Shown here: positions 57,934 to 58,928 of the stretch, piece after piece | How positions within the stretch are numbered: position 1 is the stretch's first letter | Layout of the letters: each line of letters starts with the position of its first letter | Source: a virus | Length of the DNA: 64,000 bases | Direction: 5' to 3' (one strand) | Virus record (IMG/VR): IMGVR_UViG_3300030107_002332 | The notes under the pieces: generated by a model | The model's input: only the letters and a program-made list of their open reading frames with translations | Database searches by the model: none | Told to the model about the DNA's origin: nothing | Translations under genes and position numbers: made by a program

Positions 57934-57960
57934 AAAAAAAGAGACCCTGCAATGGGTCTC
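57934..57960 (-). terminator. Intrinsic terminator followed by talC promoters
   Basis: GAGACCC/GGGTCTC plus U7; TGGTATAAT and TATAAATA (57916-57923) follow. Confidence 0.85.
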
Positions 57961-57989
57961 TTCGTAAGTTATGTCACGGTTTATGAACC

Positions 57990-58130
57990 TTATGCTCTAA
58001 CATACTTCTTGGTATAATTCATACCTCTGTACATTAGTTCATGGTTCCTTTCCTGTGCTGCTTCCTGCAGTACCTGCTTACGATACTCTTCAGTATCGTA
58101 CTTTGTTCCTCTATATGTGACTTGTGCCAT
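57990..58130 (-). CDS. DUF4278-like 'downstream peptide' (46 aa)
   Basis: MAQVTYRGTKY...LMYRG; AGGAG SD. Confidence 0.85.
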   Translation of the reverse strand: MAQVTYRGTKYDTEEYRKQVLQEAAQERNHELMYRGMNYTKKYVRA

Positions 58131-58162
58131 TGTTCTAACTCCTAAAGTAGTTGGATTTTTAG

Positions 58163-58337
58163 CCCGTTCCTTTAGTCGTTTGCGTCCCAACATTCCTTTG
58201 TCTCTTCCTTAATGACCTGAATCATTTCAGATCTAACATCTTCCTCAACATTATATGAATTCATCTTATCGATGAGAACATTAGCATCGGAACAAGTAAA
58301 AGAAGTGGCAATTAAAAATGGAATCATGGGATGAACG
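58163..58337 (-). ncRNA. Glutamine riboswitch (Downstream-peptide/glutamine-II type), split by an ORF
   Basis: 5' half CGUUCAUCCC and 3' half GGGACGCAAACGACUAAAGGAACGGG; CUAAAG pairs with CUUUAG at the DUF4278 SD. Confidence 0.7.
58172..58327 (-). CDS. 51-aa ORF nested in riboswitch loop
   Basis: MIPFLIATSFTCSDANVLIDK...KECWDAND; absent from ORF track. Confidence 0.6.
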   Translation of the reverse strand: MIPFLIATSFTCSDANVLIDKMNSYNVEEDVRSEMIQVIKEETKECWDAND

Positions 58338-58340
58338 TTC

Positions 58341-58378
58341 CGTTCCGCGACTTACTTGCAACCCCGAAGGGTCGAACG
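58341..58378 (-). ncRNA. Compact glutamine-riboswitch-like aptamer (upstream tandem copy)
   Basis: CGUUC-GA-CCC UUCG GGG-UUGCAAGUAAGUCGC-GGAACG. Confidence 0.6.
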
Positions 58379-58404
58379 TATTGGTAGCATGCTACCTTCG
58401 TTAC

Positions 58405-58412
58405 TATTTATA
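58405..58412 (-). promoter_or_regulatory. Late promoter TATAAATA
   Basis: Exact consensus upstream of the riboswitches. Confidence 0.7.
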
Positions 58413-58461
58413 TCACGAATCCCTCATAAAAGGGTTCATAATGTAACAATATGTGTGTGGT

Positions 58462-58645: not shown

Positions 58646-58928
58646 TCACTCCCTGCTGAGAACCGTCGCTCTCAACATCTGTATTATAACCCTCCTGCAT
58701 CATCTTGTCAAGCTCTTTTGATTTTTTCTTTTCCATCTCCCAAACCGCAGCAGCAATCTGACCAGGTACTAAGTCTTGACCAGTACTAGCCAGCAACTCA
58801 TCCCACTGTTCTTCTGCTGATTTTTTTATAGCATTTTTCATATCTTCTAAGTCCCACTGTATCTCATCAGAGTTTGAATCCTGCGAATGATTTTTCTGTG
58901 ACATCTTGTTTGATTCCTCCAACGACAT
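58638..58928 (-). CDS. Acidic hypothetical protein
   Basis: 96-aa ORF downstream of nrdB. Confidence 0.55.
   Translation of the reverse strand: MSLEESNKMSQKNHSQDSNSDEIQWDLEDMKNAIKKSAEEQWDELLASTGQDLVPGQIAAAVWEMEKKKSKELDKMMQEGYNTDVESDGSQQGVTE

Follow-up and report, generated by a model that had tools for sequence, protein, structure and literature searches.

Cyanobacterial glutamine riboswitches are translational ON switches that precede DUF4278/IF17 genes (PMC6212724; PMC6698751). One survey had counted no more than two glutamine aptamers among cyanophage genomes (PMC5473149). Aptamers are usually viewed as compact non-coding domains, and the covariance-model searches used to find them assume that they are. 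We analyzed a stretch of viral DNA of 64,000 nucleotides (IMG/VR record IMGVR_UViG_3300030107_002332, hereafter the window), whose source is a T4-like cyanophage of the family Kyanoviridae. An earlier note, made from the sequence without database searches, had read positions 58163-58378 as tandem glutamine riboswitches with a protein-coding ORF inside the second aptamer. The explanation toward which we lean is that this leader is a double glutamine aptamer with interleaved cores, in which the P2 helix of core 2 closes around a 51-codon gene, and that it is a predicted ON switch.

The features of the locus are collected in Table 1. As part of the same explanation, and held with the same limited confidence, the leader and the DUF4278 gene behind it would form a cyanomyovirus transcription unit of ~470 nt ended by a terminator. 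The unit would run from a late-type TATAAATA box through a 5' hairpin and the glutamine-sensing leader to the DUF4278 gene and the terminator. Relatives show a similar AT-rich box at a fixed distance. We infer that the TATAAATA box is a promoter and, because it resembles the T4 late-promoter consensus, that its timing is late. The gene order around the leader is common to the phages ACG-2014b, P-RSM1, S-BM1, S-P4 and S-CAM8, and also to P-SSM4, P-SSM7, S-RIM14 and S-SSM2.

Table 1. Features of the glutamine leader and its neighbors in the window, in the order of transcription. Numbers in parentheses after a strand name the core; MFE, minimum free energy.
Feature	Position	Strand	Remarks
Ribonucleotide reductase beta subunit	60027-58867	minus	
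manA RNA (RF01745)	58673-58462	minus	Rfam, 147 bits
TATAAATA box, T4-late-promoter-like	58405..58412	minus	~25 nt 5' of first aptamer strand; sequence
5' hairpin GGUAGC-AU-GCUACC	58383..58396	minus	Immediately 5' of sensor; in MFE fold
CGUUC(1), P1 5' strand of core 1 (outer core)	58374..58378	minus	Sequence
Core 1 P2 hairpin GACCC-UUCG-GGGUU	58360..58373	minus	Sequence, MFE fold, covariation in relatives
GCAAGUA, J2/3 strand of core 1	58353..58359	minus	Rfam alignments (consensus CGGAAGUA)
AGUCG, bridging-helix 5' strand	58348..58352	minus	P3 in type-I reading; X = G58348; covariation, Rfam P3
GGAACG(1)	58341..58346	minus	Tandem register: P1 3' strand; nested register: inner-hairpin 5' strand with CGUUC(2)
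CGUUC(2), P1 strand of core 2	58333..58337	minus	
UCCCA, core 2 P2 5' strand	58327..58331	minus	Last A is the A of the nested AUG; in MFE fold
Nested gene, 51 codons + UAA	58172..58327	minus	phrog_504; T4-GC 430 in several annotated relatives
UGGGA, core 2 P2 3' strand	58185..58189	minus	Overlaps Trp-Asp codons
CGCAAA, J strand of core 2	58179..58184	minus	Overlaps Asp-Ala-Asn codons
CGACU, bridging-helix 3' strand	58174..58178	minus	Y = C58178
CUAAAG switch strand	58170..58175	minus	Contains nested stop UAA (58174-58172); aligns to glutamine-I J3/1 'GAAG'
GAACG(2), P1 3' strand	58165..58169	minus	Outer P1 in nested reading
CUUUAG (58147-58142) overlapping Shine-Dalgarno AGGAG (58143-58139)	58139..58147	minus	Pairs with CUAAAG; MFE fold
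DUF4278 gene, 46 aa, MAQVTYRG...	57990..58130	minus	Pfam PF14105, 25.5 bits (cut-off 25.3); phrog_5049
Intrinsic terminator	57934..57963	minus	10-bp stem then U run; ends unit
Transaldolase-like gene	57892-57233	minus	

The palindrome just before core 1 looks like a 5' RNA hairpin, which is retained in the relatives with many unrelated stem sequences (median of -6.6 kcal/mol). An NtcA box at this palindrome was considered and rejected: the sequence varies between phages with the pairing kept, and the position is too near the aptamer for a box centred near -41. Among the hairpins at the same place in loci L002-L035, some copies match the NtcA-like GTA-N8-TAC and most do not. Further upstream, a perfect sigma-70-type promoter (TTGACA, 17 nt, TATAAT; 12/12; 58683-58711, minus strand) lies just 5' of the manA RNA, so that host RNA polymerase could transcribe the manA RNA and read into the glutamine leader. 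A hairpin GAACCCU-UUUAUG-AGGGAUUC (58417-58437, minus strand) separates the manA RNA from the TATAAATA box; lacking a U run, it is no obvious terminator, and a comparable hairpin is seen in the same place in P-SSM4 (L006:128-148).

When the minus strand was re-read, every base-level statement of the earlier note proved correct. The compact glutamine aptamer core 1 (58378-58341) continues after its hairpin through GCAAGUAAGUCGC to GGAACG(1), and a GAA linker leads to the 5' half of core 2, CGUUCAUCCC (58337-58328). This half ends exactly at the start codon, as had been noticed: the AUG (58327-58325) follows directly. The 3' half of core 2, GGGACGCAAACGACUAAAGGAACGGG (58188-58163), consists of the end codons of the nested ORF, UGGGACGCAAACGACUAA, and the following AGGAACGGG, and these codons do encode the C-terminus W-D-A-N-D and the stop. 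The window has a single copy of the 24-nt 3' half, and 100 shuffles have none even with up to 3 mismatches allowed; since this half is unique, was not seen in shuffles and belongs to a layout that recurs, it is not a product of chance. A separate observation concerns the base of the core 1 P2, which is A.C in 113 loci and G.U in 4 (the window, at 58373/58360 on the minus strand, and three close relatives). G.U is an isosteric swap for A.C, which suggests that the A.C forms a wobble-type pair.

We compared the leader with the two glutamine families of Rfam, whose gathering cut-offs are 35 bits (Glutamine, RF01739) and 33 bits (Glutamine-II, RF01704). At these thresholds only the manA RNA was called in the whole window, and neither glutamine core was. 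A sensitive scan gave 17.7 bits on Glutamine for core 1 alone, no match for the split core 2 and 15.9 bits for the window on the Glutamine-II model. The low score of core 1 and its G.U in place of the conserved A.C speak against the double aptamer. Relatives that have the same strands and no ORF reach 38.1-43.6 bits on Glutamine, and their core 2 taken alone reaches 30.9-38.1 bits. On Glutamine-II, one compact relative (L091) scores 34.0 bits and the others 21-32 bits. The assignment to glutamine-II made in the earlier note needs correcting, in that the match to glutamine-I is at least as good. Both cores of the window have P1 CGUUC:GAACG, a P2 hairpin and the conserved ACG after P2. J2/3 CGGAAGUA, P3 and J3/1 are present only across both cores, as GCAAGUA of core 1, AGUCG:CGACU, and UAAAG-GAACG of core 2.

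The comparison rests on 138 distinct related loci from GenBank phages and IMG/VR, collected by two routes, one using the nested protein and one a 3'-half pattern requiring no ORF; all locus counts are raw over related phages, with shared ancestry ignored. The earlier note had proposed that the same layout be sought in other cyanophages. It was found in 357 phage records and in more than 120 IMG/VR stretches, as well as in 10/10 annotated phages examined, which span at least 8 Kyanoviridae genera. Hundreds of records with this layout contrast with the two aptamers of the survey (PMC5473149). When 185,579 cellular genomes were searched with the 3'-half pattern, only 7 stretches matched, and several of these sit on ~190-kb phage-sized contigs in MAG or SAG bins, so that we treat the element as phage-borne. 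Three contigs of about 188-194 kb filed as cellular (L163, a Nonlabens contig, L162 and L167) bear the phage-type leader and resemble cyanophage genomes caught up in MAG, SAG or isolate assemblies.

The two cores can each be compact or split by an ORF, and all four combinations of core 1/core 2 states were observed: compact/split (87 loci), compact/compact (22), split/split (20) and split/compact (7). The 29 loci with an ORF-free core 2 have the same flanks around a small loop, e.g. CGUUCAUCCC-UUCG-GGGACGCAAACGACUAAAGGAACGG. In the 109 loci with a split core 2, positions 1-4 of P2 pair across the ~150-nt loop without exception (109/109), position 4 being C:G in 79 loci, with U:A and U:G in 15 each; at position 5 a pair forms in 101/109, of the Watson-Crick types A:U, U:A and C:G. 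The ORFs enclosed by this helix encode 49-68 aa and their lengths change by whole codons; the start codon lies 4-5 nt after CGUUCA in 103 of the 104 clean ORFs. In one locus (L084) the ORF ends ~20 nt before the 3' half, which indicates that an overlap of the ORF with the aptamer strand is not obligatory. Since the ORF-free forms with the same flanks score as Rfam Glutamine, we conclude from these alignments that the ORF occupies the P2 loop of a glutamine-aptamer core. The claim that 51 codons replace the usual small hairpin loop is therefore borne out, both by these ORF-free variants with identical flanks and by the covariation of P2. On one viral contig that bears a compact/compact glutamine leader we also observed a PhotoRC-II RNA (L057:1021-1116, 57.1 bits).

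The nested protein matches the PHROG family phrog_504 over its full length (E = 6.1e-14). Cys12 and Cys46 are invariant in 102/102 unique sequences of the protein, and C12, E34, C46, D48 and D51 are invariant in 55 diverse members. In the body codon choice drifts freely, with all six Leu codons in use and Cys written TGT in 71 and TGC in 31, whereas the tail, where codons and RNA motif overlap, is frozen (Asp is GAC in 102/102, Ala is GCA in 97/97 and the final Asp is GAC in 64/64). Because of the invariant Cys pair, the free synonymous drift in the body and the frozen codons at the RNA overlap, the nested ORF is, judging from its sequence record, a real and conserved protein gene. For the body, dN/dS has a median of 0.56 and lies below 1 in 92% of pairs, a rough value because dS is near saturation. 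The earlier reading of the ORF as protein-coding thus agrees with its conservation, whole-codon length changes, phrog_504 match and dN/dS. An AlphaFold model built with 55 diverse relatives predicts a helical hairpin (pLDDT 78) whose two ends carry Cys12 and Cys46. A GGAG within GGAACGG plus the linker was found in 63/109 ORF-bearing loci versus 0/29 ORF-free loci and, where present in the linker, sits in the loop of the inner hairpin. The linker of the window has no GGAG, so that translation of its nested gene may be weak. The ORF interior gave no support for special structure (z = -1.48).

The 51-aa product had been called uncharacterised. Beyond its match to phrog_504 / T4-GC 430, neither fold nor family searches were informative: Pfam gave no family for it, a Foldseek search of the PDB with its model returned generic helical hairpins only (all E > 2), and ESM Atlas returned only clusters of viral hypothetical proteins. 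A search of 5.8 billion proteins added 37 marine metagenome relatives.

The P2 of core 1 is also split in P-SSM4, AG-341-P01 and 25 other loci, here by an ORF of 62-75 aa (T4-GC 429). The start and stop codons of these core 1 ORFs stand opposite each other in P2 (UCCUAUG:CAUAGGA, UCUUAUG:CAUAAGA, UCUCAU:AUGAGA), and the type of stop codon covaries with the three bases 5' of the AUG; other members end at the UAA of GCAAGUAAG. The ORF families of core 1 and core 2 are homologous over the Cys-to-Cys core (hhalign 89.9%, E = 1.7e-6), which suggests either that the aptamer-plus-ORF unit was duplicated or that a cassette moves between homologous flanks. Five loci (L045, L055, L107, L115 and L152) present a different, longer ORF type in the core 2 loop (e.g. 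MLSLALIFFSHVP...HW...C...), whose stop is either a UAG within P2 or the customary one after ..DAND; the site is thus used by more than one gene family.

The downstream genes of the relatives are all of the DUF4278 type, being either of the window type or of an 'MNTL' type that scores below the threshold on DUF4278 (21.6-22.6 bits). In the window, the 46-aa product matches Pfam DUF4278 just above the cut-off, in agreement with the claim that the riboswitch precedes a DUF4278 gene, and the AGGAG Shine-Dalgarno lies 8 nt before its AUG. The pairing of CUAAAG with CUUUAG at this Shine-Dalgarno had also been proposed. The two strands are complementary, the helix encloses GAACGG, and the pairing covaries with stop-codon type: in the relatives the nested stop lies in CURAAG, which pairs with CUUYAG at the DUF4278 Shine-Dalgarno, and a C opposite the middle base of the stop (UUC, followed by AGGA) is present in 0/51 loci with UAA and in ~36/87 with UGA. 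Since the same RAAG, in a type-I reading, is J3/1 of the bound aptamer, the sensor fold and the Shine-Dalgarno helix would be mutually exclusive. This agrees with the ON switching demonstrated for cyanobacterial glutamine riboswitches ahead of IF17/DUF4278 genes (PMC6212724; PMC6698751).

By analogy with these cyanobacterial riboswitches, we infer how the leader would bind its ligand, which way it would switch and how its folding would compete with ribosomes. The sensor fold would combine an outer P1, CGUUC(1):GAACG(2), with an inner hairpin, GAACG(1):CGUUC(2), the two P2 hairpins and, where a type-I aptamer has its P3, the bridging helix AGUCG:CGACU. Without glutamine, CUAAAG would pair with CUUUAG and cover the DUF4278 Shine-Dalgarno, leaving DUF4278 off. 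When glutamine is present, CUAAAG would be taken up by the sensor fold (outer P1, bridging helix and J3/1), so that the Shine-Dalgarno is freed and DUF4278 is turned on. The nested start lies at the junction of the inner hairpin and P2, where the folded sensor should close it, and a ribosome on the nested gene would have to open P2. With the start inside P2 and the stop inside the switch strand, a translating ribosome and the folded sensor cannot coexist, and this geometry makes a competition between translation and folding very likely. The effect of the ribosome could go either way, because a ribosome terminating at the UAA should open the Shine-Dalgarno helix, which would couple DUF4278 translation to the nested gene and could bypass the requirement for glutamine. 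Glutamine and translation of the nested gene may be alternative routes to DUF4278, unlike the AND-type gate of the earlier note.

That gate belongs to a model of two independent tandem aptamers with their own P1s, CGUUC(1):GAACG(1) and CGUUC(2):GAACG(2), in which ribosomes crossing the nested ORF unfold aptamer 2 only and a two-tier output needs both glutamine and a translation pause. Each unit does have a P1 strand pair, a P2 hairpin and an ACGCAA strand, the compact core 2 alone reaches the 30.9-38.1 bits on Glutamine and the 34.0 bits on Glutamine-II given above, and tandem glnA RNAs are known (PMC2864571). However, the two cores are joined by a helix that is unexpected for independent units and would be possible there only as a pseudoknot. 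The base X before CGGAACGG in core 1 and the base Y after GCAAA in core 2 form a Watson-Crick pair in 137/137 loci (G:C 69, U:A 43, A:U 25; shared ancestry ignored), compared with at most 51% at slid positions, and 0/5000 shuffles reach the observed value; the helix extends as AGUCX:YGACU. Moreover, core 1 alone is without the J3/1 GAAG and core 2 alone is without the GUA of J2/3. The best Rfam matches in compact loci (38.4-43.6 bits) read both cores as one type-I aptamer, using CGUUC(1), P2(1), CGCAAGUA, a P3 'AGU...ACU' with an insert of 38-41 nt, and RAAGGAACG(2). RNAalifold likewise selected the nested register from 21 compact/compact leaders, with the outer P1 CGUUC(1):GAACG(2), the inner hairpin GAACG(1):CGUUC(2) and both P2 hairpins, which show compensatory changes. 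For the window RNA, the unconstrained MFE fold (-71.2 kcal/mol) combines the Shine-Dalgarno helix with the inner hairpin and the long-range P2; the nested sensor fold (-66.9 kcal/mol) lies 4.3 kcal/mol above it and the tandem fold (-62.2 kcal/mol) lies 9.0 above it, 4.7 worse than the nested one. As for the gate, a terminating ribosome would expose the Shine-Dalgarno rather than hide it. We prefer one core nested inside the other over the tandem register because of the bridging helix, the Rfam model scores, RNAalifold and the nearest-neighbor energies, none of which see tertiary contacts or pseudoknots, and we regard the tandem model as unlikely. The four P1 strands are invariant, so that covariation cannot decide between the nested and tandem registers or a glutamine-II-like pseudoknot, of which the bridging helix could be the P2. 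Because the inner element keeps the full consensus (CGUUCA, P2, ACGCAAA), we read it as a second core inside the first. What stands of the tandem riboswitches is thus the presence of two aptamer-like cores, but not their independence.

Two other explanations keep less of this architecture. The P2 loop could be a permissive parking site that saves genome space, with a nested gene that is independent of the sensor and has no cross-talk with it. The occurrence of all four presence/absence combinations with the same flanks, the tolerance of ORFs of 49-68 aa and of two families, the ORF of L084 and the ordinary structure of the ORF interior are all consistent with such a passenger gene. Nevertheless, we consider it improbable, as the start codon keeps its distance from CGUUCA in all but one of the clean ORFs, the stops lie inside P2 or the switch strand and covary with the opposite strand, and the linker GGAG is present only together with an ORF, in the inner-hairpin loop. 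Whatever selection intended, the physical overlap would exclude a ribosome and the folded sensor from being present together. It is far less probable still that no ligand is sensed at all and that the aptamer-like strands are relics kept as stability or processing hairpins and as a translational-coupling helix. The sub-threshold Rfam scores of the window's own cores would fit such relics, but the unpaired strands keep a near-invariant aptamer consensus (ACGCAA, GAAGGAACG) across 138 loci, synonymous sites are frozen in the overlapping codons, and compact relatives pass the Rfam thresholds. The association with DUF4278 also matches that of validated host riboswitches (PMC6212724).

Returning to the interleaved double aptamer, a more far-reaching and rather doubtful interpretation, which we offer tentatively, is that it is a riboswitch of a new kind, with a ligand-core helix closed by the start and stop of a gene and with glutamine and ribosome traffic integrated into two alternative outputs. 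The two-Cys nested protein would then be made when the sensor is unfolded, and the IF17-like DUF4278 protein would need either a folded sensor or a ribosome terminating within the switch strand. If this were true, the pair of small proteins would readjust host glutamine synthetase and the flow of nitrogen at a late stage of infection. The locus suggests that the phage encodes a glutamine-tuned module of small proteins, of which one is related to host glutamine-synthetase inactivating factors, and it bears on how cyanophages control host nitrogen metabolism in the ocean.

Glutamine riboswitches themselves are known; the novelty here would lie in the interleaving of the cores and in a helix that bears a gene. 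In our literature search, no paper described an ORF within a glutamine aptamer. Because the aptamer helix spans a whole gene, standard searches miss the phage leader. It provides a natural and testable case in which a metabolite sensor and an ORF share the same nucleotides, and the ORF-free and ORF-bearing leaders that coexist in nature constitute ready-made controls.

Several known systems couple translation and RNA folding, or place genes in structured RNA. In the Mg2+-sensing mgtA leader with its short ORF mgtL, and in leader-peptide attenuation, the position of the ribosome sets the RNA fold. These ORFs are short regulatory peptides located between alternative hairpins, whereas the phage leader has a conserved gene for a 50-70-aa protein, predicted to be folded, in the terminal loop of an aptamer helix. 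Group I and group II introns bear ORFs in peripheral loops, so that structured RNA tolerates a gene in a loop closed by a long-range helix, and in the RNA phage MS2 a helix hiding a start codon is melted when the cistron before it is translated, a case of long-range coupling. To our knowledge, neither of these is a metabolite sensor.

The closest described systems are the glutamine riboswitches. The glutamine-I class (glnA RNA, RF01739; Synechocystis gifB/IF17 leader, PMC6212724) is similar in P1 CGUUC:GAACG, P2, J2/3 CGCAAGUA, a P3-like helix, J3/1 RAAG and the position before a DUF4278 gene, and also in an inhibitory Shine-Dalgarno helix thought to be released by glutamine binding (PMC6212724). 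It differs in that the phage leader has a second core (CGUUC, P2, ACGCAAA) built into the P3 insertion, in that P2 of core 2 (and of core 1 as well in some phages) encloses a gene of 49-75 codons, and in that the elements of the window fall below the Rfam cut-off as single compact matches. The glutamine-II class (Downstream-peptide motif, RF01704), a translational ON switch of marine picocyanobacteria (PMC6698751; PMC2864571), shares CGUUCA, the hairpin, CGCA..CGA and, as predicted for the phage leader, a helix whose loop bears GGAACGG, and it precedes short DUF4278 ORFs. However, only compact phage relatives come near its cut-off (34.0 bits in L091), the phage helix after CGA is the Shine-Dalgarno helix itself, and the ORF of the phage leader lies inside the aptamer, an arrangement of which our search found no description for this class. 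Finally, tandem glnA RNAs (PMC2864571) also have two aptamer-like cores per leader, but the phage cores are linked by a covarying helix, can exchange their P1 partners and are interleaved rather than placed side by side.
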